NCBI GenBank assembly: GCA_008632985.1
Contig: QPGO01000124.1
Location: 62,001 to 126,000, forward strand
DNA: 64,000 bases
Reading direction: 5' to 3'
Source: Psammoneis japonica
Taxonomy: Eukaryota
The position numbers were made by a program, and so were the translations under genes. Within the stretch, counting starts at the first letter, position 1; each line of letters opens with the position of its first letter. The notes beneath the pieces were generated by a model. That model was not told the DNA's origin, did no database searches, and saw only the letters and a list, made by a program, of their open reading frames with translations. Positions 20,939 to 62,099 of the stretch are shown here, piece after piece.

Positions 20939-20939
20939 T

Positions 20940-23550: not shown

Positions 23551-25070
23551 ATTTGCTTCGTTTTCTAACATGGACACAATGTGCTGGATGCACGATGATC
23601 TAAAATGTAAAACAACCCATGCAACAATCAAGAACTGCCCTTCATTGTCGTGGCATTGGTTGTTTTGCTCAGTTGCGCATGCACAGGGGGGAGGTTTGCA
23701 TTGCATGGGTTGAGCCGCCGATTTGTGGTTGGTGCTGATGGATCACGCTCATTTTCATTTTCTGGGGATTTTGCCAGCGGCCCATCTGCCCAGAACCAAT
23801 TGCTGTCAGACCGCACCCCATGGCTTCTGGTGCTTTTGCCAACGACGAGCGCACAACTTCAAAAATCACCAACGGCAAAAATGGCGTTCATCTCTGCGAC
23901 TCTCATTTCAAAGACGATCGGCTCCACATCGCCAACAACTCCCATCCTGTGACTGATGTGCACATGACATTACATCATGGTGAGAATGTTGATTGTGTTG
24001 AGTTGTGTTTGTGCATGGCATGGTGCAATGTCATGTTTTGATGTTTTTTGGGGATGTTGCCTGCCCTCATGTCTTGCTCACAGTCATTTGTTTCGTGTCA
24101 TGTTCCAGAACCAGGTGTTGATGTTTGATTGTTTGCAGCATTGAACCTTCATGAGTGATGTGGATTGAGTGTGCATTGTGGGGGTGTCCTGTGTGCGAAT
24201 CGTTTGTTGCACGTGCTTGCAGTTGAGCATGATCAATCTCAAATCTCGTCCTCATTAGAGTCGGTCATGCCAGAACAGCGTTGAGACGATTTTCACTTCA
24301 GCGCCATGTGAAACTCAACAAAATCATCTGGAATGACTTTTGCACAGCAATTGCGATCTATTTTGGCACATTTGAATCATTTCTTTGCGTGTCCTTGCAG
24401 TTGAGCATGACCAATCTCGCTTGTCATGCTGGAAGCTGGAGCCGCGTCATGTCGATTGTGCACAACAGCGTGACTTGGATCTCAACAAAAACAGTTGAAA
24501 TGATTTTTACGTGAACTGTCTGCATGCATTTGATTTGTTTCATTGCACTTTGGGCTCATTTGGCAACGCATCTTTGTGGTCTAGCAGATTTGCAACATGC
24601 CCATGGAAGCATCTGCCAGAAGAACTGCTGCATGGCAATTTGCACTGTTGCTCCACTTGGAACTCAACATCATTTGGAGTGACTTTTGTGGGCTGTTTTG
24701 AACAATTTCATGTGTTGGATTTGTGGGGCCGCACAAACTTTTTTGGTTCAAACTGGTGGAGCTGTGGTTTACGGTTGAAGCAAGTGGCTGGCTCACCATG
24801 ACATTCAGTGGTCTGTGCACACAATGGCTTCAAGGATGTAAAGCCCTGCTGGGCCAACACCACAATCATTTAAAAGCGCAGCTACAATGTTGATTGAGCG
24901 GTGATTTTATGTTGAAAATTGGACATGAAGGGTTGCATCGCACCCGCACTTTGTGCGCACTGCAGTGCATGACGGTGCATGGTGCTGGCAAAAAATCCCC
25001 AGAAAATAAAAATGAGTGTGACACGCGCTCTGGCACACCGTGAGACTCTTCATGATGTGCAGCGGCAAGA

Positions 25071-28676: not shown

Positions 28677-30482
28677 TGTTAGAAATTGAAGGGAAATGGC
28701 AAGAATTCAAACAATGGCTCCTTGCTGCTGTCTAAACAGCAGATGAGTCTCTGCTCAGAGACCGTTGCAGGAGCCGAAAGATGTGTGAGTCGGTGTGATC
28801 GGGCTGCTGTTGTTGTTCTTGTGAGCCTTGTGGCTCAAAAGCAAACTGCATCACGCGCGAATGCGCAGAACTGAAGCACACAAAACTGTGCGCGGCAAAC
28901 TAAACAGCGCGCGACATTTCGCGCGCACCCAAATCCTGTTCAAATCCTGTCACTCCCCAGTTTGCTTGAGGAGCCACAGAAACAGATTCGACTTCGGATG
29001 GAATGAAGTTCCAGAACATGAGGGGGTGGAGAAGGTCCCAGATTTGGGAGCAACCCCAATGCTTGCTGAGAATGTCAGCAGGGTTGCGGGAGCCTTCGAT
29101 GAAGTGGAACTCAAGGCAACCAGAGACAATTGCCTCACGCACACGGTGGAACGACAGTGCGGTGTGTCGCTTGTGTAACTTGGAGTGCGGGATGGTGGCA
29201 CTGTCTACAACCGACTTGTTGTCACCGAACATGCAACTGACATTACGGATCGGGACGCCAAGGTGGCGCAGGGTGATGCGCAGGTTGACAATCTGCTTGA
29301 CACAAGTCCTTGCGGCAACAAATTCAGACCTGCAGGTCGCAGTCTCCATGGTGGCTTGCTTCTCAGAGAACCAATCAGCCGGGAATTTGTTGAGGAAGTG
29401 GAGCATTCCCATGACAGAGCGTCCGGTGAGCATGCAATGGCACAAGTTTGCATCGACGTAGTGGGTGGCAGTGACGAACTTGCCAAGGGGCGGTGGAGCA
29501 TCCTTCGGGATCATCTCTTCTGCTTCGCCGCACACGGAATGCATCCATTCATGGGCCGGAGCAGGGAGATCCGAACAGTCGGGCTCTTCCGTGCGAACGC
29601 GGAGAGCGCCGTGTCGCATCTTGGAGAGACACCCACAGACACGTTTGGCACGATCCAAGTGGCCTTGACGGGGCACAGCTCGGAAGCTAGAGAGTGACAT
29701 GACAGCCGTGGTGATGTCAATTCGACCAAGGGACACTGCCCATTGGAGTGAACCAACAAGAGACTGGAACTTGTGAATGCCATCGGGCCCCAGCAGTTCG
29801 GAAGTGTCCAGTTTGGGGTGGTCACCCTTCTCCAGAGGTGACAGGGCGTTGGTGGTGGGTTTCTCCCCAAACAATCGGGTGCAGCTGTCGACCATGCGCT
29901 CGATGCACTTGCGCAGAGACAGGCACAAGGTGCCGTCGGGATCCCGGGAAAAGTTGCAGCCCAGATGGAACTCAATGGGTCCCGCACCCTTGAGCTTGAA
30001 CTTGCACTTTTCCGTGAGAGCATCGACGAAAGATTGAGGGTCCTTCACAGCAATGGCAAGGTCATCCACATGGACGGCAACGTGTTCACAGTGGTCGCCG
30101 TTCCTGCGCACCCAAATGTTGGGTTCGGCGCGGCAGGGGAAGAAGCCTTCAGCTCGCAGGCAGTCAGTGAAGCGCTCGTGCCAGCAGAGACCGGAGCTGC
30201 GCAGTCCACACAGGGCCTTGTGGATGACAAGGATGTGTCCTTCGAGTTTGCCAAATTCGGGTCCGGCCACAATGTAGAGCTTCTCCTTGGTGGTGGCTTC
30301 AAGGCAGGCATTGCCAATGTCGGTGGCCCATGTCTCCAACTCGTTGAGTTCGGCCAGGAAAATCATCAGCCAAAGGCCACGGAGGGAGACTACTCCGGAG
30401 TAGACACTGTCGATGGGTACGTCCGTGAGGTGCCCATCGGCTACGAGAGTTGTGCCTTGTGGCGACCGTCGTGTTTCACGTC
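28677..30482 (-). mobile_element. 5'-truncated Ty1/Copia copy (RT-RNase H plus 3' LTR 28677-28952), same family as 33024-39700, inverted
   Basis: ORF 28900..30549 is nearly identical to the C-terminus of 34717..39477, and PPT plus 276-bp LTR are present. Homology stops abruptly at ~30482. The RT motif reads HVDD. Confidence 0.93.
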
Positions 30483-33023
30483 CACGACGCTTTTGGGCCA
30501 CGTCCGCGCGGCCATCGCTGTGATTTTCGACAAAACGCTCATAACCCATAAAATCAATTTTTCTTCATCCAAAACGCAGACACGCGACGCAACTCAAGTC
30601 GACCATGGGATCGGTTGCGGCGGCGGCAATATTTAACACCAAGTGTAAGAAACACCTGGAGAGTATGTTAAAACCTCATTATGATGATAAGGTAAGGGTG
30701 ATAAAGCAAGGCATCTTCATTTGATGCCTTTAATCGTCATCTGAACTTTTCACTCAATTTCTTTGTTTCTTCTGCATCCGACACGACAGCAAATGTTTTG
30801 AAGGTGTAAAGTGGAAGGTATTAGGCAGGTACCCATGACTTGGACGATATATTCGATAAAGATGACATAGAAAGGCACAAGTTCTTTCTTTGGCAGTGTT
30901 TTCCGTTTCAAAAACAAAAGCAAGCGCGGAAATCCTTGCTCACAACGATCATTTGCAACATTCAAATCGACTCAATGTCTACGTTATTCCATCCAAATGA
31001 TTCATCAACGGCTAAAACACCACCCTCTATGTCTAAATGAGACGATCCTGGGCAGTTATCAGTTGTCAAAAATTTATGAGAGTTCCTGAGGAGCCGCAAG
31101 CAGTTGGACCTCGGATCCTTTGAACATGCCAGCTCCAACCAAATCGATTCGGAGCACGGCTTAAATTGTTCATATTGTCTGCAAAGAGGCGTTTTGAAGC
31201 GGTATATATTTCTAAGATCGGGATCAAACTGTAGAAAATGCTGCCAGTGATAGGTAAATGACGACAGCTGGCCGGAACCCATTTGTCGGACACCATTTTC
31301 ATCATTTTGTACAGCATGCACGGAACGATGCGCAGTTTGTCAATAATGTAGATTGAAGGCTTTAAAATAGTGCAGGAAGCATCTAACACATAGAAGGACA
31401 TTAAATATGAGCAATAGCAAGAGTCAACAAACACAATTAGTGACATTGAAGCCCGAAAGTAGGATTGATCCGGAACTTGGTGTGAGCAGGTGGTTCTCTC
31501 TGCAAGGCTCCAAGCGCTAGAAATCACTACTGCAATGATGAGAATAGAATTGTCAATGAGTAATTTTGACAAAAGTGGTATAGACTAGTGCTGTTAATGG
31601 CTAATTATGACTAGGAGCTACATGCCACGACCTCGAGGAGATGCACATGCCACGGCAGATTGAACTGGCAGACCCCAGCATGCCGAGAAAACACTCGTAT
31701 CAATGTCTATTCTCTGCTGAGCATAGTTACAGTTCGATCTTGAAGGTTTGAGGGTCTCGGCAAAGCCCCTTTGAGGGACAAACAAGGTTTACAACTGTGC
31801 TTTGCATCGATTTGGCTGCAGGTGCTAGATTCGCAGAAGTCTGAGTCCACCTGCTTGCGGGCCCTCACGTCCTTGAATTGCTCTTTTGTTACCTTGTCTT
31901 GCCCATAGTAGCTTCCTTTATTACATGAAGGGGCTCTCTAATTCCTTGAACAACCCCTCCTCATGAATTTCTTGGCATTCTGAGTCGATCAGGCGGTTGC
32001 AATAGGAAAAGGCGACGGATGCACTTGTGGATGAGCTCTTGTTTTCAGCTCAGCATCACCTCCCACAACAGTCAGGATATTTTCTCCTTCATCTCGATCA
32101 TAAATATCGACGAATGAACGTTATCTTATGCCGTACCTTCAATGTTGAACCTTGAGAACGTCGCCTGAAGTTGTCGGAAGCAGCGACATCGGGTGAAACA
32201 AGTGGGCGGCAGCAAAAGTCTTTTTTTCGCTCTGTAAGTCCCAAGATTCGCAATGTTTTTACATAGAACGACAGACATGTAAGTAAATGATGAGATACAA
32301 TTGAAACATTGCGAATGTTGACCCAAGAACGCAAGCAGTAACGTTCTTACCGATGAACGGCGACTCACCATTTTCGTTCCGTAACTTTTACGCATTTTTT
32401 GTACTGTGAATTGTGGGAGGCAGATCTGAATTTCGGCCCAAAAAAAAGAAGGAAGGAGCGGCTTTTCAGTACTGCCGTAGAATCTACGTGCAAGATGACG
32501 TCACAGTACAAAATGCCATTTCTACGCAGCGGTGGCCGCTCCGCGAGCGTCGTGCATCAATCGCGCGATTTTGATGATTACAGTCCTACGGCACACGGTA
32601 CGTCGCGGTCGCATCTTTGATCTCAACCGGTCATTTTTTGGACGGACAATGGCAAGACTCCCGACATTCCATCGTGCCGTGCTTGCACCCACACACTGCG
32701 TGTGCGCCAGTCCATTGTTTACAAAATCACCAACATGGACTGACCTAAACAAAGCTGTGATGTAGAGAGAAAGTTGGGGTGCCAGACTGACACCGACCTT
32801 GCTGGTTGCAGAGCGTTCCATGAAAAAGAGAGACTGCTTTTTTTCTTGTTTTTGCCCCCCCCCCCCCCACTGGCTCCAATCCCAGGTCGGACTCTGTGTG
32901 ACATTGGGCCCGTAGAATTCCACGTGTGAGCTCTGTGGCAAATGTTTTAAGCAATGAAAATGTGGATGATTGCCAACAGAAAAAGAGGCAATTTTACGAA
33001 CGCATCTCCTCCTTCACACTTGC

Positions 33024-33299
33024 TGACAGGATTTGAACAGGATTTGGATGCGCGCGAAGTGTCGCGCGCTGTTTAGTTTACCGCGCACAGTTTTGTGTGC
33101 TTTAGTTCCGCGCGTTCACGCGCAATGTAGTTTGCTTTCGAGCCACAAGGCTCACAAGAATGACAACAGCAGCCCGATTGCACCGACTCACACGTCTTTC
33201 GGCTCCTGCAACGGTCTCTGAGCGGAGACTCATCTGCTGTTTAGACAGCAGCAAGGAGTCATTGTTTGAATTCTTGCCATTTGCCTTCAATTTCTGTCA
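33024..33299 (+). repeat. Copia 5' LTR
   Basis: Aligns without gaps to 39425-39700. Confidence 0.97.
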
Positions 33300-33310
33300 G
33301 ATTAACAGTC
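33300..33310 (+). other. Putative primer-binding site complementary to a tRNA-Asn(GUU) anticodon arm
   Basis: gattaacagtc directly follows the LTR. Its reverse complement GACTGTTAATC contains the CTGTTAA anticodon loop. Confidence 0.45.
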
Positions 33311-34240
33311 TTGCTCATTGTCAACCCATTGAGCAACCGCCATCGTCGTCGTTGATTTACCAACGACGCTGTTTCAATTCTGCGTGGACCTCCGCATGTG
33401 TTCTACATGCATCGGCAAGTCTACGCGCATCCAACACCAGGGCATCGGCAGGAAGTTAACGTCACCGTCAAGTCTCCTTACCGCTGGATGTCTGGATTGA
33501 TCACACTACCTTTGATCGCTGAAGACATGCATTCAATGGTCATGTCCAAGTCCATCCTTGATCCTCATCCCTTGACACACCTGTTCATCGGTTGACGGTC
33601 AAGAACCCTGCATGTCCAAGGATCTTTGTCGCTGAAGACATGTGTGTATGCATGCATGTCTTCACGGCCAAGAACCTGTGCCCACCCTTCGGACTGCGGT
33701 TTTGCTGCCACTCTACAAGCACACCGAGTCCATTGCACCTGATCCACCCCGGACTGCTGGTGCTCTACAGTTCTGCTAGGTCCACGAGGACGACTGTGAG
33801 AGCAAGCAGCCGTGATTGCAGCCTACGTTGGGGCGAGGGTGCTTTCCCGCGTTTGTTCGTTCGTCCACAGCGCCTGACGCCTGCGTCAACTGGCCAGCCT
33901 GATCGGGAAATCCAACCGACATAAAATAAGAACGGTTCGGGGGTCTTGTCCACCTCTAGTCAGCTTACCTGCAGGGGTTTACAACCCGCTGCTCCGCTCG
34001 CAAGCAACCCAAAGCGCCACCAGCTGCGGGTTCGGACATGCCGGCACAACTCTATGGACCGGACAGGAAGTTTAGCACTTGACAACGAACGGGATGACAA
34101 AGCCCGGCGACTTCTGATTTTAAGACAGTTCAAGATTTCAAGTCAAGTCTGTTTCAAGTCAAGTCCATTCTCACCCAAGTTTCAAGTCTGCCTTCGCTTC
34201 CCAACCAGAATTGATTGTCCTGACACCACTTTTGTCTACC

Positions 34241-37200
34241 ATGGTTCTCACTCGTCAGCAACAAACCGATGGTTTCGAGCACGTTGTTGGAACCGTGCTT
34301 GCCCAAGGTGCTGGGAGTCCTCTTCGTTTGGCTTTGGCCCAAGACGGCACGGACTCGCATCAGGAACTGTTCACGTTCATGCCGTCCCAAATCGACTCGC
34401 TTGAGTGCGACAACGGCACTGATGCAATCCCTTTGCCCCGTGGTTATAAGAACATGTTAGCAGCACTAGTTAGCCTGTACATTGTCAAAGCACACAAAGG
34501 TCTTGACGTTGCCAATGACTCCTCTTTGTTCACGCATGACGAGTTCCTTGCCTGCCGCCTCAGCCCGGACTGCATGTCCTCTCTGTCCATCGGCAGCTCA
34601 CCCCTTGCACCTCCACATGTCACCAACCCAACCAAGGCACGCGACCCGGTGCGAGACTTCAAGCGAGGCATCAAGCGTGATCCCACCGCTTTCACGGCTC
34701 TCAAATCCGACAAGCAGTGGCACACTTGGCACACCTCACTTGTGGCACAAGCCCGTGCCCAAGACGTCGCTCCTTGTCTGAGTGCGCGCTTGCCTCCACC
34801 CGTGCATCTGTCGAGTCCTCCACCCTGCTCACGCACCTCACCACCGCACGTCTTGGTGATGGCACTTGGAAAGGTCCGACCCACGGGTTCATCCTTCATT
34901 GGCAAGATCAGTTGCGCAAGTGCGAGGCACTCATCCCCGCCAGTGACCACTTCTCTGAAGGACAGAAGCGCGTCATGCTCGAGAATGCCGTGCACCCTGT
35001 CGAGGAACTCCGTGCTGTCAAGAACCAAGCTGATCAGCATCGTACGCAGAGTGGCAAGAGCCTCACATGCAATCAATGCTGTGGCTTGCTCCTCTCTGCG
35101 GCAGCTCAGTGCGACAGCACGTTTCAACCCAAGACGACACCTCGAGCTCCCCGACGCACCACACACGCACACGACGTCTGCTCCGAGGAACCGTCCAACG
35201 ATGTGTTCTACGACATTGACAGCGACGTTGACGTCCTTCAAGCCAATGCTGCCTGCACCCGCGGTCCCAGCCTCACCGGTGTCCAATGGAGACGTCTCCC
35301 TCCCGACCACCAACGGCTCTGGGATTCGTTGCCCGATTCCTCCAAGGCGATCATCCTTGAGCACTCTCGTCCGCCTCCCCGCAACCCGAGAGCCAGCAAC
35401 TGCCATGAGTCCGTTACGGCCAACCTTCACGACCAACACCTTGGGAGTGACGGTGATGTCAACTTGTCCAACACGACTCCTGCTGACTGTGGTGACTCCG
35501 CTGCACATGTGGATGCCACTTCGGATGATCCCATCCTGGCGCACCTCACCAAGCGCAAGCCACTGCCACCCGGTGATCTGCAACGTCTGTTGTCACCTAA
35601 CCAAGCCCCCAATGCCAGTCGACCAGGGCCATCCGCCGCTTCCTCTACCCCGCCAGCTCCTGCAGATGACATGGAACTTAACGGCCGCACTTGCCGCCGC
35701 GTTGACAACCACAATGTCATTTGCTCTGCCTCTGCTCATCGCTCCACACGCACTGGCGCTCTAGTCGATCGTGGGGCCAACGGCGGCATTGCTGGCGACG
35801 ACGTTCGCGTCATTGCACGCACCTCTCGCCAAGTCGACGTTCAGGGCATTGATGATCATCAATTGGTGGACATCCCCATTGTCACCGCTGGTGCCGTCAT
35901 TGAGACCCAGCGTGGTCCCGTCATCGCCATCCTCCATCAGTGTGCATGCACGGGAAAGGGCAAGACCATCCATTCCTGCGGCCAGCTCGAATGGCACAAA
36001 CAGGATGTCAACGATCGCTCTGTCAAGGTGCCCAACGGCTTGCAACGTGTTGCCACTCCTGATGGCTATGTCATCCCCATTGACATCAAGGCTGGCCTGC
36101 CTCATGTTGCCATGCGACCTTACACTGACGCCGAATGGGACACCCTGCCCCATGTCATCCTCACCGGTGATGACACATGGGACCCTTCCGTCCTCGATCA
36201 CTCTGTCACTGACGACGACCAGTGGTACGACGCGATCTCTGACCTGCAGGACGATCCCACTGCCAACCTATTTGACGAATGCGGCAACTACCGTCACCGT
36301 GTCGTTGTCAACGAGACCATCTTGTCCGCTTCCTTGTCTGCCGATCACGCATCCGCCCTCGATGATCACCTCATTCCGAACAACGACGTGTTCTACGAGT
36401 GTCATCTGCATGCGATTGACCCCAATGGCGATGACGTTCCACCTCCGGAGCGCACTGTACAGCCCAAGGACCCCCCCTTCGAGTCTCTTCGGCCTTGCTT
36501 TGGCTTCCTACCTGTCGATGCGGTCCGTCGCACTTTTGACTGCACCACGCAGTACGCCCGCATGCCCGCCGGTACACACCTTCGCAAGGCCTGCAAATCA
36601 CCCAACCCCGCCCTTGATGTGCACCGCCGCAACGAGCCTGTCGCCACTGACACCGTTTACGCCGACACCCCGGCCGTCGACTCCGGTTGCACCAGCGCCC
36701 AACTGTTTGTTGGCACCGAGTCTACCGTCACCGACGTCTACGGCACTAAGACGGACAAAGAGTTTGTCAACACACTCGAGGATCAGATCCGTGAACGTGG
36801 TGCCCCATCCAAACTCATTAGCGACCGTGCTCAAGTTGAGATCAGCAACAAAGTGCTCGGGATCCTACGCGCCCTCTTCATCTCCAGCTGGCAAAGTGAG
36901 CCTCACCAGCAACACCAAAACTTTGCCGAGCATCGACACCAGACCGTGAAGCGCATGGCGAACACTGTCATGGACCGTTTTGGTTCGCCCGCCCACACAT
37001 GGCTGCTGGCGCTCATGTGCGTGTGCTTCACACTCAACCACACAGCGTCCCCACGTCTCCACTGGCGCACGCCCCTCGAGACTCTCACTGGATCCACCCC
37101 GGACATCAGCCCATTGCTTCGCTTTCACTGGTGGGAACCAGTGTACTTCCACCTCGATGACTCCGATTGGCCGTCCGAATCCCGTGAGTTGCGTGGACGT

Positions 37201-39477
37201 ACCTTCCTCATGCAGCCACAAGAGGACGGACAACGCCACAGAGCTTGCATCGTCAAGGCCGTCGAAGACCACGAATGGAAAGTGAACGGCAATCCCGAGC
37301 TCACTAAGTTCGTCTGCTCTGTCAACAATGACGAACATGAGGAAGTCCTTGCCTGCAATGACATCATGAATCACATTGAGCAAGAAGACGAAGACACCAC
37401 CATTTGGAAATTTCGACGCATCGCATCACACGAAGGACCTCTGAAGCCTCACGACCCAACCTGGAAAGGCTCAAGCTACAACATCATGCTTGAATGGGAA
37501 AGTGGGGAGATCACGTCCGAGCCTCTTGCCATCATCGCCAAGGACGACCCCGTCACCTGTGCCATCTATGCACGAGAGAATGGACTCCTCGACACGGATG
37601 GCTGGAAGCGGTTCCGCACTATCGCGAGGCGCCAAAAGAAGCTATTTCGCATGGCCAACCAAGCCAAGCTTCGCTCCTTCCGCACTGCACCTCGCTACAA
37701 GTGCGGATGCGAAGTTCCCCGGAACTACAAACACGCCATGTCACCAGACGAACGCAACGGCAACCGCAAGTGGGGAGACGCAACTAATCTCGAGATGGAC
37801 CAACTCGACGAATACGAAGTCTTCCATGACTGCGGGCCCTTCAAGTCTTCCACTCCTCCTGCGGGACACAAGAAGATCCGAGTGCACCTGGTGTACGACG
37901 TGAAACACGACGGTCGCCACAAGGCACGACTCGTAGCCGACGGGCACCTCACGGACGTACCCATTGACAGTGTCTACTCCGGAGCAGTCTCCCTCCGTGG
38001 CCTTCGGCTGATGATTTTCCTGGCCGAACTCAACGAGCTGGAGACATGGGCCACCGACATTGGCAATGCCTGCCTTGAAGCCACCACCAAGGAGAAGCTT
38101 TACATTGTAGCTGGACCCGAATTTGGCAAACTCGAAGGACACATCCTTGTCATCCACAAGGCACTGTATGGACTGCGCAGCTCCGGTCTCCGCTGGCACG
38201 AGTGCTTCGCCGACTGCCTGCGAGCTGAAGGCTTCTTCCCCTGCCGCGCCGAACCCGACATTTGGATGCGCAGGAACGGCGACCACTGTGAATACATTGC
38301 CGTTTATGTGGATGACCTCGCCATTGCCATGAAGGACCCCCAATCTTTCGTCGACACTCTCACGGAAAAGTGCAAGTTCAAGCTCAAGGGTGCGGGACCC
38401 ATTGAGTTCCATCTGGGTTGCGATTTTTCCCGGGACCCCGACGGAACCTTGTGCCTGTCTCCGCGCAAGTACATCGAGCGCATGGTCGACAGCTGCGCCC
38501 GACTGTTTGGGGAGAAACCTGCCACCAATGCCCTGTCACCTCTAGAGAAGGGTGACCACCCCGAACTGGACACTTCCAAACTGCTGGGACCCGATGGCAT
38601 TCACAAGTTCCAGTCTCTTGTTGGTTCACTCCAATGGGCAGTGTCCCTTGGTCGAATTGACATTGCCACGGCTGTCATGTCACTCTCTAGCTTCCGAGCT
38701 GCGCCCCGTCAAGGCCACTTGGATCGTGCCAAACGCGTGTGTGGGCACCTCTCCAAGATGCGACACGGTGCTCTCCGCGTTCGCACGGAAGAGCCTGACT
38801 GTTCGGATCTCCCTGCTCCGGCCCATGAATGGATGCATTCCGTGTATGGTGAAGCAGAAGAGATGATCCCGAAGGACGCTCCACCGCCCCTTGGCAAGTT
38901 CGTCACTGCCACCCACTACGTCGATGCAAACTTGCACCATTGCATGCTCACCGGACACTCTGTCATGGGAATGCTCCACTTCCTCAACAAATTCCCGGCT
39001 GATTGGTTCTCCAAGAAACAAGCCACCGTGGAGACTGCAACCTACGGATCTGAATTTGTTGCCGCAAGGAATTGTGTTGAGCAGATTATCGACCTGCGCA
39101 TCACCCTGCGCTGCCTTGGCGTCCCGATCCGTAATGTTAGTTACATGTTCGGTGACAACAAGTCGGTTGTAGACAATGCCACCATCCCGCACTCCAAGTT
39201 ACACAAGCGACACACCGCACTGTCGTTCCACCGTGTGCGTGAGGCAATTGCCTCTGGTTACCTTGAGTTCCACTTCATCGAAGGCTCCCGCAACCCTGCT
39301 GACATTCTCAGCAAGCATTGGGGTTGCTCCCAAATCTGGGACCTTCTCCGCCCCCTCATGTTCTGGAACTTCATTCCATCCGAAGTCGAATCTGTTTCTG
39401 TAGCTCCTCAAGCAAACTGGGGAGTGACAGGATTTGAACAGGATTTGGATGCGCGCGAAGTATCGTGCGCTGTTTAG
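34241..39477 (+). pseudogene. Copia gag-pol polyprotein, defective
   Basis: gag starts MVLTRQQ with FKRGIKRD; protease LVDRGANGG; integrase VATDTVY...ISDRAQ...SEPHQQHQNFAE; RT YVDD; RNase H YVDAN...SEF...DNKS...NPADI. Frame break at ~34770, apparent in-frame deletion at ~37198, many Y->C/H. Confidence 0.93.
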
Positions 39478-39700
39478 TTTACCGCGCACAGTTTTGTGTG
39501 CTTTAGTTCTGCGCGTTCACGCGCGATGTAGTTTGCTTTCGAGCCACAAGGCTCACAAGAACAATGACAGTAGCCCGATTATACCGACTTACACGTCTTT
39601 CGGCTCCTGCAACGGTCTCTGAGCGGAGACTCATCTGCCATTTAGACAGCAGTAAGGAGTTGTTGTTTGAATTCTTGCCATTTGCCTTCAATTTCTGTCA
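39425..39700 (+). repeat. Copia 3' LTR
   Basis: Aligns without gaps to 33024-33299. Confidence 0.97.
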
Positions 39701-42099
39701 CTTGCAGTGCATCAGCTGCAGTTTGCACGGGCATGTTCTGCAGATGTTGATGCGCCAATCGCATGAGATGCCCGTTTGTGGCCCATGTGTGAGCCGCAAT
39801 TTTTTTCAAATCTTCAATGACAGAGACAATCGATTGAGCAGACCCCACAGTCGAATTCTCCACACCCCCACGAAAACATGGGAATCGACACTTCATCTGT
39901 TCAAAAAGTCCCGCTGGTTGTTCTGGTGGCCTCTAAAATGTGTTTGCATTTTTGCACAATTTTTTTGCCGATTTCTCCCTCCACCATAAATGACAACGAG
40001 ATGAGCATCGTTTTGAGAATTCTGGCCAATTTGCGGCCCACATGTGGGTCGCAAAAATTTGCGATGAGAATTTTGTGGCCCAGATGCGGGCTGCAAAATC
40101 ACGCGTTAGGCGTCTGATGCAATTGGTGTTAAAGAATGTACCCAGCATCTTTTCATTGTCACAAATGTTGAAAATAGAAAGCCTTTGGCTTTGCAAAATG
40201 GGAAGCATGGGACAATTTCGTAAAATGTCACACACGCAGCCATCTGGGTGGGCAACATGCGGCACGATCCAAAAATCTGTTGATGTCACAGCTCAGCAGT
40301 GCAAGGTCCCACCTGTGCTTGCCCCTGCTGCCACAGAGCTGTTTGCAGAAACCCTGAGCAAAAAAATTGAAAGAGCAAATGAGTGCTGCCTTTCACATTG
40401 TCCAGTGACAATTGTTGTCCACTGATGCTGCGCTGGTGTGATGAGGAGACATCTGTCTGCCAGCTCAAAACAACACAGCCAGGTGGGTGTGGTGACACAC
40501 ACACAGCAGCGGGGTGATGTGGTGCCGACCCATGTGAAAATCACGCAGAGGGGTTGTTTGTTCTTGAGTTGCTCCACACCCACACCAGACAAACCCAAAG
40601 ACATCCCAAGAACCCCCGCCCCCTGGCAATGTGGAGCTGACCTCCACTCCTGACTGCAAAAGAAGGGTGTTTGGAAAGAAGAAGAGTCTGTGAACACAGC
40701 CAGTTGGTTGATGCCACAGGTGCGGGCACTTTCCATGGCTTTTGTGTTTTTGTGCAGTGTGGGAGACTCAAAGGCTGTCAGACAAAGTCACAGCAAAACT
40801 GGCCAATCAGCGACAAGCAGTGTGCAGAGGCTGCAATGATTGCACTGCCACATGTTGTGTCTGCCGCATGCACCGCAAGTGTGTTGGAACATCCAAACCA
40901 TGGAAAACATGAACAGCCGCATTGAAGAAAAGATGCTGTGGATCCTGACACAGTTTCACCATCACCAACCTGTGAACCTTCAGTTTTGTCTTGCTCTTTG
41001 GAGTGAATGATTTGGTTTGTTTGGTTTGTTGCTTGGCACAGCCAGGCACCCCTTGTTGTCTCACAAATTTGAAGTTTGTGCTGACAACTTCTTGGCAACC
41101 CATGGCCGCCGCAATTGACTGGCCAAGGCAAGTGTGTCAAGTGACACAGGAAGCCCAACAAAGCTCCCTTTTGGCACCATGCTGGCTCAACATGAGCATG
41201 TCAGCAGGATCAGCATTGAAAAATCAGGGGGGAAGCACACCAATGCAATCAAGCGCAGCTCATTGAAATTTTGCCTTGACAGCTCTCCACCTTGCAGCCA
41301 CAATTCCACACAAATTCTTCACTGCAAGCACCAGTGGATGAAAGCATCAACAGGGCTTTTCAAGGGAGGCAAAAAGAGGTGTTTGTCATGATCATTTTCT
41401 CTGCCCTTTTGAGGCCACACACTTTTCTTCTCTTTCACAACAAACCCATCAGCTGTGATGCTGCTCGCTGAAATGCCATTTGTGCTGCCCACCCATGCTG
41501 TCGTGCAGCTTCTTAAACTCTCCACCCATGATTTTTTGCTTTGCAATGCTCTGCCCACAGATCTGCTGGCATCCATTGATTGTGAGCACCAGAGCCTGTG
41601 GTGTGGTGTGGATTGCAGCACCAAAACCTGAGGAATTTCAAGAAGCTGCGAAGAAAACGCATTTTTCATTTTTCTTGCTCTTCACGTCGGCATCAATCAC
41701 TCTACACAGCACTTTTCAGCAGCAAAGTGCCCGTGCAGGATTGAGCTTCTGTAAAAAACTGCACACCAAGGTCGTGCATCGGTTGAAGCTGCTTGGATGC
41801 AGAACAGTGCATCTTCAAGATCTGCCGGAAGAAAGCTGGGAAGACACAATGCACCAAGGAAGAAGGAAATTAATGGACCGCCAGAGCAGATTGAGTCACA
41901 ACTGTCATCTTGTCATCATTTGTGAACGAGCTGTGCCATGAGAATGTAAGTGCTGATGCTCCTTAGAAGAATGGGATTGCTCGCATGAGTGTCGTTGTCA
42001 AGGTCTTGCTTTTTGTCAATTGAGCTCGAAGAGCCTTTCACGTTTTGCTCACTGTTTGCTCCGTGTCTTGTCCTTCTTCATCCTCCTCTTCATTCATTT

Positions 42100-44371
42100 T
42101 CGTCAATTTCAGAATTGCGCTTGCCTTTGCCTTGCAATTTGCAAGTGTCTTGGCCACCGATTGCCCTTTTCTGAAGAAACAGAAGGAAGATGTTGTCAAG
42201 AACACTGCTCATGTTGTCAACCAGAAAAATCACAAGCTCAACCTGCCGTTGTCCGAGCGTGCGGGAGATCAAGGAGTTCCTGACGGTGGACATGAGGCGG
42301 TGATGCAGGATCTGGTGAGTTCCCATCAGTCAGCCTCCTCCTGCCGGCATGTGTTCGTCCTCTCAGGCGCAGTCTTTGTTCCGAATGGTTGTTTCTTCTC
42401 GTGTTTTGTTTTCGTGTGGTTGGCCCTCATGAGCACATCACAAGACTTCTTCCCACGGACTTCACTCCTCCCTCTTGTGCTGGACTGTTCATCCGTCTAG
42501 CATGGCGCTTCTCCGGATCCCACTGCGACTCCGACGGTCGTGGCGGGTGCAATGGCGGTCGCATTTGCTTCGACCCCGAGTTGACGTGGGAAGACAACGC
42601 AAACCTCAATCAAGCTCTCAAGCTCCTCGAACCCATTGAGGAGGAGTGCGGATCAACTCTTTCATGGAGCGACCTCATCATTCTATCCGGCAATGCTGCC
42701 TTTCAGTCCACTGGGGCAACTCTGCTTGGCTTCTGTGGGGGGCGCATCAATGACGACAATGGCGATGCCAGTTTGACTCTTGGACCGTCTACGGAACAAG
42801 AGGCTGTGGGTCCCTGCCAGAACTTGTCGCCGTCCCGTCAGGGCGTTTGTCTGAGTGCAGACGACACAGCTCTAGGGCCTGCCACTGTGGGGCTGATTTA
42901 CGTCAACCCAGAAGGTCCAATGGGAGCCAAGGGAGACATTGCTGCCAGTGCTGCAGACATTCGCCAAGCCTTCGGTCGCATGGGATTTAGCGACAGTGAG
43001 ACCATGTTGCTTGTCGGTGGAGGCCACACCATTGGAAAGTGTCATGGCGCATGTGCCGAACCGCCCTGTGGAGCAGGAACTCCTGCCGAGGGTGTTGGCA
43101 ACAACACCTTTGCATCTGGTTTCGAGGGTGCATGGTCTACAACCCCTGCGACATTTTCGAATCAATGCTTCAACAACCTTTTTAATTTTGAATGGAGGCA
43201 GACAACGTCGCCACCAGGCAATCTGCAGTGGGAACCTTTCAACAGTGACGGTTCGCCAGGACCCGACATCATCATGTTGACTGCCGATCTTGCGTTGACT
43301 GCCAATGATTCCCACCGCACCATTGCCAAGAACTGTGCTGGCAATCAGTCCGCCTTGGACGAGGCCTTTGCGGCTTCGTGGCATTGCCTCACGACCGCAG
43401 ACATGGGCCCGGCGACACGTTGTCTGGGAAGCATGGCACCCGATCCACAGCCATTTCAGAGGACATTGCCACCCATGCCGGAAACCCTTCCAGACTACGT
43501 TCAACCCCGCTCCATGATTCAAGACATCATTGACGATGATGACACTGTCTCTGACAAGTTCATCAACCTCGCATGTCATTGTGCCTTCACGTTCCGCTCT
43601 GCAGATTGCCAGGGTGGATGCAATGGAGCCTGCATTCGTTTTTCTCCAGAATCCGACTGGCCTGAGAACGAAGGAACTTTGGAAGCACTGGCGTCATTGG
43701 CGCCTGTCAATGAAATGCATCCGGAGGTTTCCTGCTCTGATTTGATCGCACTTGCTGCGCTTGCCTCCCTTGAAGATGAAAACGGAGATGTTGGATTGAC
43801 GTTCTGTGGCAGATGCGTAGATGCCGAAAATGCTGATGGCAGTGAAGCCTTGGCGCCATGCCTCTACAATTTCACGCCACCAGATGGATGTGTTTTTAAT
43901 CCCTGCGTCGTGATGGTTCGTGACGACTTCCAGGTGAAGGGATTCTCGGCGAAGCAGGGCGTGGCTCTCGCTGCACGCAAAAACCTCTCCAGTCAGCACT
44001 TCAAGGACCTGATGGCCGCATGTTCATCTGACTCAGATGACTTTTCAGACATTGAAAAGGCACTTTGCTTGGATGAATTTGGACCCATTGTGGAGGAATT
44101 TTCAAATGACGAGGCTGCACTCAAAGAACACTTTGTCTCTGCTTGGACCTGCATGATGACGGCTGACCGCTTCAAAAACAACGCTGAAATCTGCTGCGAT
44201 GGTGTCGACACCCCCACGAAAGAGGACACTGGGATGACTCCATCGCCCACGAGTGCGCCCTCAGGCGCCGCTGCTGCATCCATTGCCATGACGTCCCTCA
44301 TTGGCATCATTGTTGCCGTGATGGTGCAAGGTTTTCACCTTTCTTTGTTTGAAATTGGGTCTTTCATCTAA
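42100..44371 (+). pseudogene. katG: Catalase-peroxidase (KatG-type), copy B, disrupted
   Basis: Signal-peptide exon, intron 42315-42419 with acceptor reading tgg, a 1-nt deletion at ~42453, distal His lost (RLAWR), LIYVNPEG retained, and stop TAA->CAA at 44327 giving read-through. Confidence 0.88.
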
Positions 44372-45910
44372 CGTCAATTGTGAGATCATTTAACGTCAGT
44401 TGCTTCATTTGAATTTAGCAAATTTTATGAACCTGTAAAATCATTCATGGCTTTGTGATGATGTTTTGTTTCACCCTGCGCTCTGCACTGGAGCAGCTCT
44501 CTCTAGAAGCAGCCCAGTGTCTCAAGCACATCATCCGTTTGCACTCTGTCCAGCTTTTGCCTCCACATCCAGGTGCAGCAGCTGGAGCAGAGGCTGCCAC
44601 ACAATTTGTTGACTCCATGTTCCATGATTTCAGTGCACTTGCAGGTCTGCATGTTGGAATTTCTTTGCATTTTCAATGTGTGTTTTGCACCCCATCAGCC
44701 ACCACCATGATGACTCACCACGATGACCCTCTTGCGGCAGACCGCCAATCCTCAAAATGAGCAGCGACTGTGTGCTGAAAACTTTTGGCACATGTCATGA
44801 ATTCCCAAGCAGACCCAACACTGACTGCAAAGCAGCACATTGGGTCCAACGAATCAGGTGGAGCACCCACTGGAAAGCATCACACAAACATTTTGTGTTG
44901 ACATGCAAACACTCGACTCGTGGAAATCTTCAATGTTTTTGGCGAAAATCATCCGCTGTGTTGCAGCCAATTTTGTCACAATGTCAAACATTGATGGCAA
45001 AAAGAACAACATTGTGACACTGGCGTGGGTCTTGTCAGTGTTGCAAAATGTTAAAATTTGGATAAGTTCATGCTTTCAGTGGCAAAAACTTGGTTGCCAG
45101 TCAGAGATTGCCATGTAAAAATGATGCAAATGTCATTTTTGTGCACGGCTTGGTTCACGCACAGCTGGAACATGCCAGCTGCTTGCCCTCCAAATGCAAC
45201 AAGTTGATTGACATCATGTGGGTGGGCTTGTTTTTGTGTGTGTGGTGCTCCACACTGGGCTCGAAGGCTACCACTGGACCAACAGTCTTGGTCAAACAAT
45301 CAGCTGATTTGCAAGCAACAAAGGGGCCGCAGTCATCACAAATGTGTCAGCAGGCACTGCTGTGTGAAGTTTGACGTGCTTTGTTTCTGTGGCACTGTTG
45401 TCAAAGCCACTCATTCGCTGGCCCAGGGGCCTTGAACTCAGAATTGGAGTCATGCATGTGTTGGGCATTGGGAGGTGAGTGCGTCGGTGTCTGAAGTGTT
45501 GGCAGAAAACACCTGCAGTCTGTGGTGCTGCAAGATGACGCCACACAAGTGAAATGATTCAGGACACACAGCAGTGGTGCAAGTCCAAGCAGAGTGCAGC
45601 ATTGTTCGGCACTGCACGCACGACAACAAGCTAAAACAATGGCACCACAGGTCGCACCTCTGCCAGCACAGGTGCTCTAGTAGAGAGAGGGTGGGGGAGA
45701 GTCCGGCTCTCCTCGCTAAGGAGCCAACAGGATGCAATGTTGATGATTCTCATCAACATCGACGGGGCGCAACTTCGAATCTAATAGAGAAAATGCCACA
45801 AACGATGCTCAGATCCATTATCCCAATCACAAGCTTTCTCTCACTAACGGAAAAGAACTTGTCAATAGTTGTTGCAAGACCTTCGGGTTGAAGAAAAAAC
45901 GTAGCCCTCT

Positions 45911-48476
45911 TCAACTGTTGGCCGCTAACTGAAACGCATCATTAGCTGCACCGTTGCCTTGCTGCCTATCTTCCGTCCGGCTGCTCAAGATAATGGGCAT
46001 TGGAGGACTCTCGTAAATCAATTGCATGTCGTTGGAGAGCTCATAAGCAAAAAGTTGCAAAGCGGCTTTGCTGGTGAGAATTGCGCCAATTTGTTGCCAG
46101 CTCTCTCTGTGCTTGACGATGACCTTGTATTCCACATAGTTCAAGTCAGGACATACATTCGAGAGGCGAAAGGCTCCAAACGAAAGCCACTCCCGAGGAC
46201 GATCCTTGACGTACTGCTCTACCGCAGCTGCAAACGCCTTGACCTTGTCCTTGTCCACGTCAATTGTGAATCGAACGACAAAATTCAGTGATGCCTGAGG
46301 GGAACGGTTGTGGTTGATGATTCGAGAACTAGCCAGCGAGCCATTGGAGTATGTCGCTTCCTCGTTGGTCGTGCCAAAGACCACGGTCGTCTTGTACAGA
46401 TCCAAGTCTTTCACAATCCATCCCGAGGAACCTGAGCCACTTACATCCTTCTGGACATCAGACACCGCCACGCGATCCCCTATATCGAAAGGCTTTCGGA
46501 CTAGTACGAAAAGAAGACCTTCAAAGTACTTGGACGACGCTCCGCCTATCATGAACGCAAAGCCCACGATGAAGCCTACGACGCTCCCAAACAAGGCCGC
46601 CTGGTCAACACCAAGCATGCCCAGAACAATCCAACCCAAGATAAAGTAGAACGCAACATCCACCAATCTCTGAGAAGCGGCATTCATCCTGTTCGCATTG
46701 AGGATCGACGCGTGGATGACGCGGAGCTCCTTGTACACGGCATCAATCGACTTGACGAATTCAAGCATGGTCAATTCACCGTCTCGTGTTGGACGAAAAA
46801 TACGAATCAGCTCCTTCAATTTCTGTTCGTCCAACGTGCCATCCTTTTTCAATGCCACCACTGCAAGAGTGTCAAACTTGATGAGTCCGTCATGACCATC
46901 ACTCGTATCCAAACGAAGAAATAATTTCTGCGATGAACCAATACATGATTCCCGTTTGTCTGCAACTCCAAAGTAGATCGAGAATGGGTAGTCATTGTCA
47001 ATACATGTCACGGCGGCGCGAAACTGCACAATGGCACTAATGGGTACAACGTCAATCTTTCGTTGATCAATGTTGGGTTCTTCCCATTCGCCAAGAAGGT
47101 CTACAATCTTGGCCCTTTGGCTGTGAGACAAGCCACTTGAGTAAACATCTTTTGGATCGGTTTGAAACACGAAATACGAAGATGAAACGTCGTCATCGTC
47201 GTCGGTCTCCTCATCGTTGCCTTTTCCGAGCTTCTCGAAATCCAACTCAAAATGCTGCGCTTTCGACACGGCATTCTCATCTTTGGCAAGAGCCGCGACC
47301 TTGCCAATAAGCACAGCCTTATTCATGACGCTTGCGAGATCTTTTCCGTACTGCCGATACACCCCAGTCCCGTAGTGAAGGCTGCAAAAGAAGCGCTTCA
47401 AGCAGACGGACCCACCAATCACCACGGCACTCGCTAGAATTCTCTCCCATGATTCAGCGTTCGTCACGTCACCGGAGCTGTTGTTTTCATTGAAAACCTC
47501 CATTGCTTTTTGGTAAAACAGCCAATGATTCGCAAATCGGGAATTGCCATAAAGCATGGCAAAATTATAGGCAGCCCATGCCATTCTGAACATGAAAAAG
47601 CAATAAGGAGATAGAATACAAAGTCAGAAGAATCCGAAACACACTAGTTCTTGTCTGTGTTGTGCCTCACTTACAGTTGAAACGGCCAGCCTTTGGACTG
47701 AACAAGAATCAGCGTGTTGAAGGATCCCGCCACATTCATGAAAAAGGGCGTCGAAATACAGAGAAAGTCGATAAGAACAACTTCGGTGGCCTTGGCCAAG
47801 GTCAAGGTGAGAACATTTCGAACCACCACAAAATTGATCCACCACGACACGGTTGCGCCACTCGAGCCCATGGGGTTGCCCCACGCATAGTAAAAGAGCA
47901 CAGTAAAGGCAAGCCCGGAAGAATCAAGTAGAGCAGAGTCGACTTGAGGTATAGCAACAAGGAGTCCTGACGAAACGCGAGAAATCTTCTGATTTGCAAA
48001 CTGAAGCGGGTAACTTTGGAGGACATTTTCTTCAACCTTACGGCATTGTCCACGAAAAGATCTGCCTGTGTTTTGAAATGATGTTTCTTTTTCTCTTCTT
48101 GTTTCTCATCTTGGCCTACTTGTGGCTCAGTCGGTTCTTCTTCTTCTTCAACAGCAAACATGGCATTGCCATGATTGTTGTTTTGTCCTCCACCCGCATG
48201 ACTCATCATGGCATCGGTCAAGAAGCGAAGAGAATCCTCCACGGTTGAATTTTTCGTTTCTGCTTGATACAAGTTTCTTAGCGACGGCCGTTGAGGCATA
48301 CCCGTAAGGATACCGGTCGATATCTTGCCCTTTTCTTCGTCATAATTTTGCTCCAAAGATTCAAAGACACGCGTTTCGGAAGCATCTTCCCGAGGACCGA
48401 AGTCCAATACATCTTGAACGGTAATGCTAGCAGTGGTGCTCTCGGGAGGATCGTCTCGTTTTTGCGTGGTTCCCAT
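45911..48476 (-). CDS. MscS-family mechanosensitive channel with EF-hand-like motif, near-intact copy B
   Basis: FAFMIGGASSKYFEGLLFVLVRKPFDIGDRV...WIVKDLDLYKTT...TYSNGSLASSRIINHNRSP and PTRDGELTMLEF. GT-AG intron 47586-47674. One 1-nt frameshift at ~47912 (error or real). Confidence 0.85.
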
Positions 48477-49059
48477 GTCTTTCGTTTTCTAATGGATAGT
48501 AGTATATAACACTGGAAGAATGATGATCAAAGGCCTCTAATCTCTCTAACGATACAAGCAAACATTGATGTCGTCGGCATTGGTTGTTTCGCTCATCGGT
48601 TCCGAGGTTCGTTCGAGGTTCGCGTTAGATGCGTTGAGCGGGGCCGCGGCCGCACGCGCGGAATGTTGTGACGGTGCCGTCTGACGTCACGCTCTGTCCT
48701 TCCATCGCTCGCACAACGAACAGCAGTTCACACCCCACGCACAAAGAAAGCACTTTTTTTTTCAGTTTCAGCACCTTCCAAAAAAGAGAAAAACCTGCTG
48801 TGCGCCCAAAAATGTGATGTGCAGTTGGTTCATGCCAACATTTGACACAAAAGTGCAGTGCCACGCTGGTGTGCCTTGCTCACAAGCACACTGTGCCAAG
48901 TTGTGGCGCGGCATGGTGCTCGCCTCTTTTGCAAGTCTGCTGTGCCAGAGCTTGCTGCACATTGCAGAGCAATCTTTGACCACAACACATCTTTTTACAC
49001 TGTTGTTGTTTGCAGTCATTGATGTCAACACAGATGAAAGAGCATTCCAGATGCAGGTG

Positions 49060-61900: not shown

Positions 61901-62099
61901 ACCGAAATTTAACGGTACAGTCGTTAGACGTGCTGAACGAGCCTGCTACCGTAGTCCAGTTTGTCTCAGCCGTTGAATGGCTTCGCAGACGTTTACAGTA
62001 TCGACTATCGAGTAGAGTGCTGCTGGCGCCACTATCTAGCAGTGCCTCAATGGTTTGAGTCTTGCCCTTGCCATGTTTAGCATTCATAGCTACAAACAA
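58974..62099 (-). pseudogene. Gypsy pol (protease, RT, RNase H, integrase)
   Basis: LLDSGAS; LDLNMG(CC)HI, PMGLCNSPDIFQ, (H)LDDLL; DASK.QLGAV, TERELL, DHKNL; H..LCHPG...C..CQ, D.GTEF, NPQANATVERVH. Probable natural stop at 58974-58976 now reads CAA, so the ORF runs into the LTR. Confidence 0.93.

Follow-up and report, generated by a model that had tools for sequence, protein, structure and literature searches.

How do the two long terminal repeats (LTRs) of a single retrotransposon insertion, identical when they are laid down, come to differ at many positions but only within a few kinds of dinucleotide? The question is posed by a Ty1/Copia element in the genome of the diatom Psammoneis japonica (GenBank assembly GCA_008632985.1, contig QPGO01000124.1, forward-strand positions 62,001 to 126,000). 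This stretch of 64,000 nucleotides is referred to below as the window, and all coordinates are counted from its first letter. A sequence-only reading of it had proposed that the LTR differences lie exclusively at TpA, CpG or TG/CA sites and arose in the genome after integration. We found the same kind of change in a second retrotransposon and in a duplicated segment of host genes, and conclude that silenced DNA of this diatom nuclear genome is very probably rewritten at two palindromic pyrimidine-purine (YpR) steps, CG and TA. The spectrum of the changes, their direction, their post-integration timing, their regional confinement and their sequence context are directly observed. The Copia element is laid out as follows.

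33019..33023, plus strand: left copy of the target-site duplication CTTGC, the 5 bases directly 5' of the 5' LTR
33024..33299, plus strand: 5' LTR, Ty1/Copia-type, with TG...CA ends; 276 nt with 5 TA, 20 CG, 22 TG and 25 CA
33300..39424, plus strand: Copia internal region, carrying the frame with the reverse transcriptase domain RVT_2
39425..39700, plus strand: 3' LTR; 276 nt with 11 TA, 19 CG, 22 TG and 20 CA
39701..39705, plus strand: right copy of the target-site duplication CTTGC, equal to the 5 bases before the 5' LTR

A repeat search of the window recovers the LTRs as an ungapped direct-repeat pair of 276 nt with 94% identity, and the CTTGC duplication, described as perfect in the sequence-only reading, indeed stands without mismatch directly outside both ends. 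Base by base, 17/276 positions differ; all 17 differences are transitions, and there are 0 indels. They group into 13 dinucleotide steps, each of them YpR (TA, CG, TG or CA). Six steps are TA in one copy and TG or CA in the other (LTR positions 37/38, 147, 156/157, 158, 166 and 229), three are CG versus TG/CA (42, 86 and 100/101), and four are TG versus CA (138/9, 141/2, 215/6 and 237/8). This computational alignment agrees with the manual one made earlier, confirms that indels and transversions are lacking, and reproduces the count of steps exactly. We call a column YpR if it belongs to such a step in both copies. By this definition 144/276 columns are YpR and none of the remaining 132 differs, so that every difference does lie at a TpA, CpG or TG/CA step (P = 1.6e-5 for all 17 differences falling in YpR columns by chance; P = 1.6e-8 if all must also be transitions, at a transition to transversion ratio of 2:1). 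At the six TA versus TG/CA steps the TA is always in the 3' LTR; the 5' LTR is the more converted of the two.

A second pair of LTRs, which had been named as a check, shows the same spectrum.

58498..63800, minus strand: Ty3/Gypsy-type element with 437-bp LTRs (58498-58934 and 63364-63800) and 37 LTR transitions, all in YpR steps

Here 37/437 positions differ, with 37 transitions, 0 indels and 37/37 differences in YpR steps, although YpR columns number 244/437 (P = 4.3e-10 for all differences falling there). A search for a target-site duplication around the Gypsy LTRs found none. Together, the Copia and Gypsy pairs hold 54 differences in YpR columns versus 0 in 325 non-YpR columns, which bears out the earlier claim of a rate far above background. 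Naive LTR divergence amounts to 6.2% for Copia and 8.5% for Gypsy; in the non-YpR columns it is 0/325, with a 95% upper bound of ~0.9%. LTR-divergence dating thus overestimates age, as had been suspected, the differences being confined to YpR steps and the other columns identical. Such dating is invalid here: divergence measures exposure to hypermutation, not time. For canid endogenous retroviruses, too, it has been considered that CpG in LTRs may be hypermutable and inflate ages (12/69 LTR changes; PMC6407205).

The direction of change can be read from a duplicated host segment (no strand assigned to the MscS-like copies as a whole).

45905..48492: MscS-like segment copy A, unconverted; channel gene on the minus strand, open reading frame 45911-47623
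20934..23568: MscS-like segment copy B, converted; duplicate of copy A
42266..44526, plus strand: catalase-peroxidase copy 2, hypermutated; open 691-aa frame 42296-44371
16583..18884, plus strand: catalase-peroxidase copy 1, hypermutated; duplicate of copy 2

These copies belong to a DNA-level segmental duplication of ~7-10 kb, between ~13032-23568 and ~41693-48492 (80-91% identity in pieces), which carries genes on both strands, the catalase-peroxidase on plus and the MscS-like channel on minus. Copy A, with a CpG observed/expected ratio (o/e) of ~1.0 and a TpA o/e of 0.36-0.43, was used as an internal control. Its 70 TA correspond in copy B to 5 TA, 31 TG, 32 CA and 2 CG, and its 143 CG to 54 CG, 40 TG and 49 CA; TA loss in copy B is 90% versus a CG loss of 62%. 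Reverse cases, in which B has the site and A the converted form, number 1 TA and 12 CG, and TG/CA-to-TA changes are seen at 1/361 sites. YpR transitions make up 187/305 substitutions between A and B. Hence TA is destroyed (A:T-to-G:C), not created, and both TA and CG have changed to TG/CA, in one MscS-like copy only. Both peroxidase copies are hypermutated, but only one MscS-like copy; the peroxidase copies must have been hit independently after duplication, because 21 steps between them are TG in one and CA in the other. That mutation followed integration, as first proposed, is supported twice over: a single insertion has LTRs with changes on both strands, and a DNA-level duplication of host genes repeats the spectrum. 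As to the host, every named match of the intact MscS-like gene is a diatom (Conticribra, Cylindrotheca, Odontella, Grammatophora, Mayamaea; best identity 56%), the best named match of a catalase-peroxidase is a diatom, and the nearest Atlas cluster of the Copia polyprotein lists Bacillariophyta.

A further comparison is offered by a second member of the Copia family within the window.

28677..30482, minus strand: truncated second copy of the same Copia family, consisting of an LTR (28677-28952) and ~1.5 kb of pol

The third LTR mentioned in the sequence-only reading is therefore genuine, being the minus-strand end of this truncated copy. Positions 28681-30482 match 37897-39696 of the main copy at 93.9% identity, with 108 substitutions, of which 103 are transitions and 85 YpR transitions. 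Compared with the 5' LTR of the main element, the third LTR shows 18 transitions and 1 transversion in 272 nt, 15/19 in YpR steps. The truncated copy is the more converted one: it keeps 11 of the main copy's 33 TA and has TG/CA at the other 22 (TA loss 67%, CG loss 21%). At seven tyrosine (Tyr) codons the main copy retains the TAY of the family (Y, pyrimidine), and the truncated copy reads TGY or CAY. At two codons that encode Tyr in the family, one copy reads TGY and the second CAY; these codons prove directly that a TG versus CA pair can descend from TA.

Tyr codons record the process in proteins, where they turn into cysteine (Cys) or histidine (His). The 21 Tyr codons of MscS-like copy A have become 11 Cys, 9 His and 1 Tyr in copy B. 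Among 11 columns with Tyr conserved in 14 relatives, copy A has Tyr in 8 and copy B in 0, while other conserved columns are kept similarly (149/180 in copy A, 139/180 in copy B). Copy B also carries 47 transversions, 17 gap openings and a stop. Cys or His occupies 18/39 conserved Tyr positions of the main Copia copy (18 kept, 14 Cys, 4 His, 3 phenylalanine), versus 0-3/44 conserved Tyr columns in each of 25 relatives. The share is 12/16 in the truncated Copia, 15/18 in the Gypsy polyprotein and 9/11 in peroxidase copy 2, which additionally has Cys at 5/16 conserved arginine positions, despite its open frame. At conserved columns for residues other than Tyr, the Copia, Gypsy and peroxidase copy 2 alignments show retention of 79 to 100%.

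Hypermutation is not peculiar to Copia but affects about half of the window. Window-wide, dinucleotide o/e values are 0.73 for CG, 1.49 for TG, 1.46 for CA and 0.28 for TA (1165 TA observed versus 4098 expected). There are 35 TA-free runs of at least 300 bp, in otherwise complex sequence, among them the following (no strand assigned).

9230..10987: longest TA-free run, 1758 bp
40222-41513: TA-free run, 1292 bp
4868-6054: TA-free run, 1187 bp
53539-54476 and 19314-20249: further TA-free runs

We divided the window into 128 500-bp windows and refer to those with TpA o/e <0.2 (64) as converted, >0.4 (39) as normal and in between (25) as intermediate. About half of them are poor in TA and CG and rich in TG/CA. 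The pattern is sharply local, with TA per 500-bp window jumping between 0-2 and 20-35. TpA and CpG o/e covary (Spearman 0.70), and both are inversely related to TG/CA (-0.83 and -0.81). Converted blocks have a CpG o/e of 0.07-0.4 and a TpA o/e of 0.0-0.1; in gene blocks CpG o/e is ~1.0. The normal blocks hold intact-looking genes (an EF-hand Na/Ca exchanger, a sulfotransferase and MscS-like copy A), the depleted ones repeats and decayed gene copies. Stop triplets are affected as well: TGA makes up 86% of them in converted 500-bp windows versus 51% in normal ones, with 55.5 and 74.5 stop triplets per kb, respectively. Long open frames persist in hypermutated DNA (42296-44371, 16684-18060, 58719-62174 and 34681-39477) because TAA and TAG have been erased. 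Dead genes that keep such frames, like the 691-aa peroxidase, would be annotated as genes, and their Tyr-to-Cys/His substitutions would pass for protein divergence; open frames are unreliable gene evidence in such blocks.

The TA sites that survive reveal the context of the process. TA with a purine after both A's (one on each strand) accounts for 81/168 sites in converted windows versus 138/777 in normal ones, TA with a pyrimidine after both A's for 9/168 versus 208/777 (chi-square 85, P = 4e-19). By 3' neighbour pair, survival relative to normal windows is highest for A,A (3.4-fold) and lowest for T,T (0.09-fold). The preferred TA target is T-A-Y, with the changed A before a pyrimidine. This context explains the excess of Cys over His in Copia without any effect of transcription: 7/7 Copia Tyr codons with a preceding pyrimidine became Cys, and none His. 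The mutated CG strand tends to T-C-G (13:9 versus 5:19, Fisher P = 0.015), and among surviving CG, T-C-G is scarce and G-C-G abundant (P = 1e-4); the GCGCGC clusters retained in the Copia LTR fit G-C-G survival. A T-C-G-like motif is reportedly found in the hypermutation of basidiomycete transposons. Viewed from the pyrimidine, a purine is favoured before the changed T, and T before the changed C. The two processes also differ in tempo. Young elements combine a CpG o/e of ~0.9 with a TpA o/e of ~0.3, and the TA process is the faster one.

With these results the LTR differences can be read anew. The Copia LTRs hold 19-20 CG versus 16-18 expected (18 shared, 3 single) and 5 and 11 TA versus 17-18 expected, and the Gypsy LTRs 27-28 CG versus 31 expected (23 shared, 9 single) and 4 TA each versus 23 expected. 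Visible double hits at CG are expected ~0.05 times in Copia and ~0.3 times in Gypsy, far below the 4 and 12 TG versus CA steps observed, which CG loss cannot explain. Almost all of them are former TA sites lost by both LTRs on different strands. On this reading, the TA process accounts for ~14/17 Copia and 28/37 Gypsy LTR differences, and CpG for 3 and 9; the Copia tally of 14 comes from 6 single and 4 double sites.

The explanation we favour for the locus as a whole involves two processes acting in the same blocks. Among their targets are LTR retrotransposons and older repeats, but also host-derived sequence in the form of dead copies of duplicated genes. CG changes to TG or CA (C:G-to-T:A) and TA to TG or CA (A:T-to-G:C), with TG/CA as the common end state. 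The changes occur after chromosomal integration and on either strand at random, in blocks of ~0.5 to a few kb, approaching completion in old blocks and sparing neighbouring genes as well as one copy of a duplicate. In tRNA adenosine deaminase substrates U33 is invariant before A34, and the substrate of the bacterial enzyme is U-A-C. The 5' T requirement seen here matches this U33-A34 context, which is only a lead. Tentatively, we suggest that the TA part may be enzymatic deamination of adenine to hypoxanthine in DNA, within the same silent chromatin, and the T-A-Y preference narrows the search for an enzyme. For the CG part, the probable cause is that 5-methylcytosine deaminates in methylated repeats; a diatom Copia element has been reported to be methylated in CpG context (PMC2806351), and DNMT5a loss de-represses young transposons in Phaeodactylum (PMC9998398). 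The function of the two processes may be to disable mobile and foreign DNA.

A number of observations weigh against this account. At the six TA versus TG/CA sites of the Copia LTRs, parsimony alone would have TA gained in the 3' LTR, and the third LTR agrees with the 5' LTR at 5/6 of them. We consider parallel TA loss to be the more likely cause of this agreement, because every polarised comparison in the window shows TA loss, because the six sites are susceptible T-A-Y sites while 3/5 retained TA are T-TA-G and not susceptible, and because the chance of at least 5/6 agreements is 7/64. The LTR sites are not directly polarisable, since the best outgroup, a metagenome Copia locus, is 71% identical over 2 kb (nucleotide level, 71 loci). 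The asymmetry of the LTRs, with 6 versus 0 visible TA losses, needs patchy action, towards which the Copia data point faintly: no Tyr is left at the first eight conserved Tyr codons, all of them converted, but neither a runs test on the codons (21 versus 21.0 expected) nor TA counts in 200-bp bins (P = 0.16) show significant patchiness. The strand choice expected of T-A-Y is borderline in the A/B pair (7:3 versus 7:18, P = 0.053). The Tyr-to-Cys/His signature is absent from the 70 related metagenome Copia loci with at least 10 conserved Tyr columns (at most 8% of conserved columns); the comparison used the 80 best-scoring of 637 Copia matches, which favours intact copies and under-samples decayed ones. 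As 0/70 loci show the signature, the TA process is not general among hosts of this Copia family. Finally, that the converted blocks are silenced, methylated chromatin is something we infer, as are the targeting and both chemistries.

The metagenome loci are also informative in composition. Among the 71, the lowest TpA o/e is 0.35 and the median ~0.72, and several relatives are CpG-decayed alone, e.g. with a CpG o/e of 0.16-0.24 and a TpA o/e of ~0.5-0.64. The locus with the lowest TpA (L030, a metagenome contig of 3974 nt) has a CpG o/e of 0.73, a TG/CA of 1.41 and His at 2/25 conserved Tyr columns; this could reflect mild conversion in a different host, or else ordinary variation.

Could one activity account for both steps? 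When thymine is oxidised, its products mispair with G; in the DNA of dinoflagellates, TpA sites are enriched in 5-hydroxymethyluracil. A single dioxygenase of the TET/JBP kind might thus oxidise the 5-methyl group of 5-methylcytosine at CpG and of thymine at TpA, with the oxidised bases mispairing, and in both cases it is the 5' pyrimidine of a palindromic YpR step that would change. Such a scheme is economical: it would explain by one activity why both steps are hit in the same blocks (the Spearman coefficient of 0.70), and the product is in both a transition of the 5' pyrimidine. However, the flanks differ, with a purine before the changed T and T before the changed C, and so do the extents of loss (90% versus 62% in copy B, 67% versus 21% in the truncated Copia). 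In young elements, TA is being lost with CpG still near 0.9, which suggests two separate activities. We regard the single dioxygenase as unlikely.

A still less probable alternative is that the changes exist only in the reads, a long-read basecaller having misread densely modified bases (5-methylcytosine at CpG, a modified A or T at TpA) in LTRs that are truly identical, with TA and CG intact. Both targets are palindromic, as symmetric modification of DNA would lead one to expect. The public runs carry no record of their library type, and the contigs we compared (four runs, one sample, one study) may come from the source of the window itself. At some positions, e.g. 33537, 36732 and 38796, no contig carries the window's letter. 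A consensus by strand majority would, however, give long runs of a single product, whereas TG and CA are randomly ordered over 152 converted sites (86 runs versus 76.7 +/- 6.2 expected). Converted copy B is truly decayed, as its 47 transversions, 17 gap openings and stop indicate. Contigs of run X1, which were built from exact words and have a depth of ~30-700 in unique flanks, match 40176-40291 without mismatch, and this interval overlaps a TA-free run. TpA-specific mutation has, furthermore, been measured with Illumina reads in Bigelowiella natans (bioRxiv 10.64898/2026.01.13.699255). Among the 40 best-supported differences between contigs and window, 37 are transitions and 36 of these YpR; 14 have TG/CA in the window and TA in the contigs, and 8 are the reverse. 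The contigs show TA/TG/CA/CG variation among Copia family copies, and the family is so abundant (13,695 X1 contigs) that the window's own copy cannot be isolated.

CpG decay alone would require the TA sites to be double hits, from CG through TG to TA. CG-to-TG/CA changes are indeed abundant and on both strands, CpG methylation of diatom retrotransposons is documented (PMC2806351, PMC9998398), and some metagenome Copia relatives are strongly CpG-depleted with ordinary TpA. But TA is lost here, not gained (TpA o/e 0.28 in the window, 0.0-0.1 in converted blocks), 63/70 TA of copy A are now TG/CA in copy B, TAY codons become TGY or CAY, and cytosine deamination is unable to give A:T-to-G:C changes. 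As a complete explanation, CpG decay is ruled out by the A/B comparison, and we give it hardly any credence; it survives as one of two components.

Equally remote is repeat-induced point mutation (RIP) of fungi, or a RIP-like mutation of every duplicated sequence triggered by homology. Repeats and duplicated genes are visibly targeted, the changes are transitions, both peroxidase copies were hit independently after duplication, and the mild T-C-G preference recalls the hypermutation of basidiomycete transposons (PMC3318451). RIP, however, converts CpA to TpA and raises TpA (PMC2621366), which here is destroyed. MscS-like copy A is untouched while copy B is saturated, and in a short repeat family (20554-20939 and 49064-49418) one copy is TA-normal and the other converted. 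The host is not a fungus, every named MscS-like match being a diatom. Classical RIP was rejected because the direction is wrong (TG/CA-to-TA 1/361 in the A/B pair) and because it mutates all copies of a duplicate, whereas copy A is intact; a RIP-like homology trigger is not supported.

Enzymes of the ADAR and APOBEC kinds act on RNA or pre-integration cDNA and leave one-strand patterns. Editing before integration (ADAR-like on RNA or APOBEC-like on cDNA, fixed by reverse transcription) would suit the 5' U preference of ADAR (bioRxiv 10.64898/2026.01.13.699255), which would give TA to TG in retroelements, and the excess of Tyr-to-Cys (14) over Tyr-to-His (4) in Copia, but it is next to impossible given that the LTRs of one insertion differ, on both strands, that the same changes are found in a segmental duplication with genes on both strands and hence in non-retro targets, and that the T-A-Y context explains the Cys/His bias.

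Post-integration hypermutation at TA and CG thus has to be compared with known systems, of which the closest is B. natans. In a mutation-accumulation experiment with Illumina sequencing, two integrated viral regions accounted for 231/302 nuclear mutations of this alga. Those mutations were nearly all A-to-G or T-to-C, every one on TpA, and arose at a rate ~1000 times background and in some lines only; the authors propose an ADAT2-like DNA adenine deaminase and point out that ADAR and tRNA adenosine deaminases act on A after U (bioRxiv 10.64898/2026.01.13.699255). By the cut-offs of that preprint, 24/64 1-kb windows here qualify. As in B. natans, TpA is hit with TpG or CpA as products depending on strand (31 TG and 32 CA in copy B), the changes are regionally confined next to normal DNA, and TpA is depleted and CpA+TpG enriched over the long term, in B. 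natans in clusters enriched in reverse transcriptases and transposases. The differences are considerable. The host is a diatom (Stramenopiles) and not a chlorarachniophyte (Rhizaria); the targets are LTR retrotransposons, older repeats and dead host genes instead of giant-virus and virophage insertions; and TA-free stretches reach 1-1.8 kb, whereas TpA is 1.8-fold lower in the nucleocytoplasmic large DNA virus region of B. natans. TA loss here also coincides with CpG decay (89/143 CG in copy B, 3/13 Copia LTR steps) and has a 3' pyrimidine preference. The changes are accordingly not near-exclusively A-to-G or T-to-C, which leaves two readings: a different system, or the same one with a second process on top. 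The rate was measured in B. natans and is deduced from sequence here. The words CpG, trinucleotide, diatom, retrotransposon and LTR were not found in the main text of the preprint.

Other systems share single traits with the window. Decay of methylated CpG likewise turns CG into TG and CA about equally (40 TG and 49 CA in copy B) and on both strands, but CpG explains only 3/17 Copia and 9/37 Gypsy LTR differences, the rest being A:T-to-G:C at TpA. RIP and the RIP-like hypermutation of basidiomycetes resemble it in dense, context-specific transitions that disable repeats and duplicated genes and make divergence ages unreliable; unlike here, RIP works in the opposite direction between CpA and TpA, in fungal hosts, and here one duplicate copy can stay untouched. 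With animal ADAR/APOBEC editing the window shares context-specific transitions that cripple mobile elements, but its changes are post-integration, on both strands and in non-retro DNA too. Full-text literature searches, subscription-only papers excepted, brought up nothing on TpA-targeted hypermutation in diatoms or on diatom repeats depleted in TpA; among the papers found, judging by titles and abstract openings, the B. natans preprint alone concerns TpA-targeted hypermutation of integrated DNA. The locus therefore presents saturating TpA-to-TpG/CpA hypermutation coupled with CpG decay in a diatom, with that preprint as the only precedent found.

If the sequence is right, TpA hypermutation operates, to saturation, in a second lineage and on retrotransposons and pseudogenes. 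Diatoms offer transformable model species as well as existing methylome and chromatin maps, so that both the agent of the process and the way it is targeted are testable. One may speculate, with more doubt than conviction, that the diatom and B. natans share an adenine-editing defence, as wide as the Stramenopiles, Alveolata and Rhizaria or wider, that acts at T-A-Y in silenced, CpG-methylated chromatin until mobile elements and dead genes have no TA left. It would then be an old counterpart of RIP with the opposite chemistry (A to G, not C to T). Its enzyme, possibly a relative of tRNA adenosine deaminases that has preserved their U33-A34-like context, would edit adenine naturally in chromosomal DNA that is double-stranded.

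The main Copia copy itself is a defective Ty1/Copia element with intact ends. Its stop-to-stop frame (34681-39477, 1598 aa) contains RVT_2 (Pfam, E = 8e-28); Pfam found no integrase domain in the frame at E <= 0.001, and the alignment to full-length relatives spans that region. The polyprotein has 1876 relatives at E <= 0.001 (top identity 73%), mostly of ~1850-1930 aa and from environmental assemblies. Compared with a full-length relative, it is split across two frames near 34770-34800 (frame change 34768-34801), and, relative to full-length relatives, ~85 codons are gone at ~37195 (37189-37200). Contigs of a public run part from the window at 34768/9 and 37194/9, i.e. at the frame change and the deletion. 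Because several contigs diverge exactly there, the copy is a member or the founder of a deleted lineage, even though its target-site duplication is perfect. The insertion lies at the edge of a short-repeat copy (32869-33022), and X1 contigs join ~32984-33016 to ~40170-40179 and thus represent copies without the Copia insertion.

In the Gypsy element, conversion is patchy at the kilobase scale. A ~1-kb patch at 61001-62000 keeps nearly normal TA in an otherwise converted element (17 versus 30.5 and 32 versus 37.1 expected), and the only two conserved Tyr codons of Gypsy that still encode Tyr lie in this one TA-rich patch.

Several other repeats are present in the window. An older family (3723-4927, 11235-12616 in inverted orientation, and 54925-56096) has 69-75% identity; in a same-family pair, TG versus CA is the largest transition class (108/212 transition positions), an excess as expected if both copies had been converted to saturation. 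A dispersed repeat of ~385 bp occurs at 20554-20939, 32869-33022, 40129-40314, 49064-49418 and 25070-25162. Its copy at 20554-20939 is inserted into the converted copy B relative to copy A and is TA-normal (29 versus 39 expected in 20501-21000); that at 49064-49418 falls within a converted block. Tandem duplications at 14034-14428 and 15711-16028, with units of ~194 and 170 bp that are 79-89% identical, are situated in a TA-normal, apparently non-coding block; hence not every local repeat is converted.

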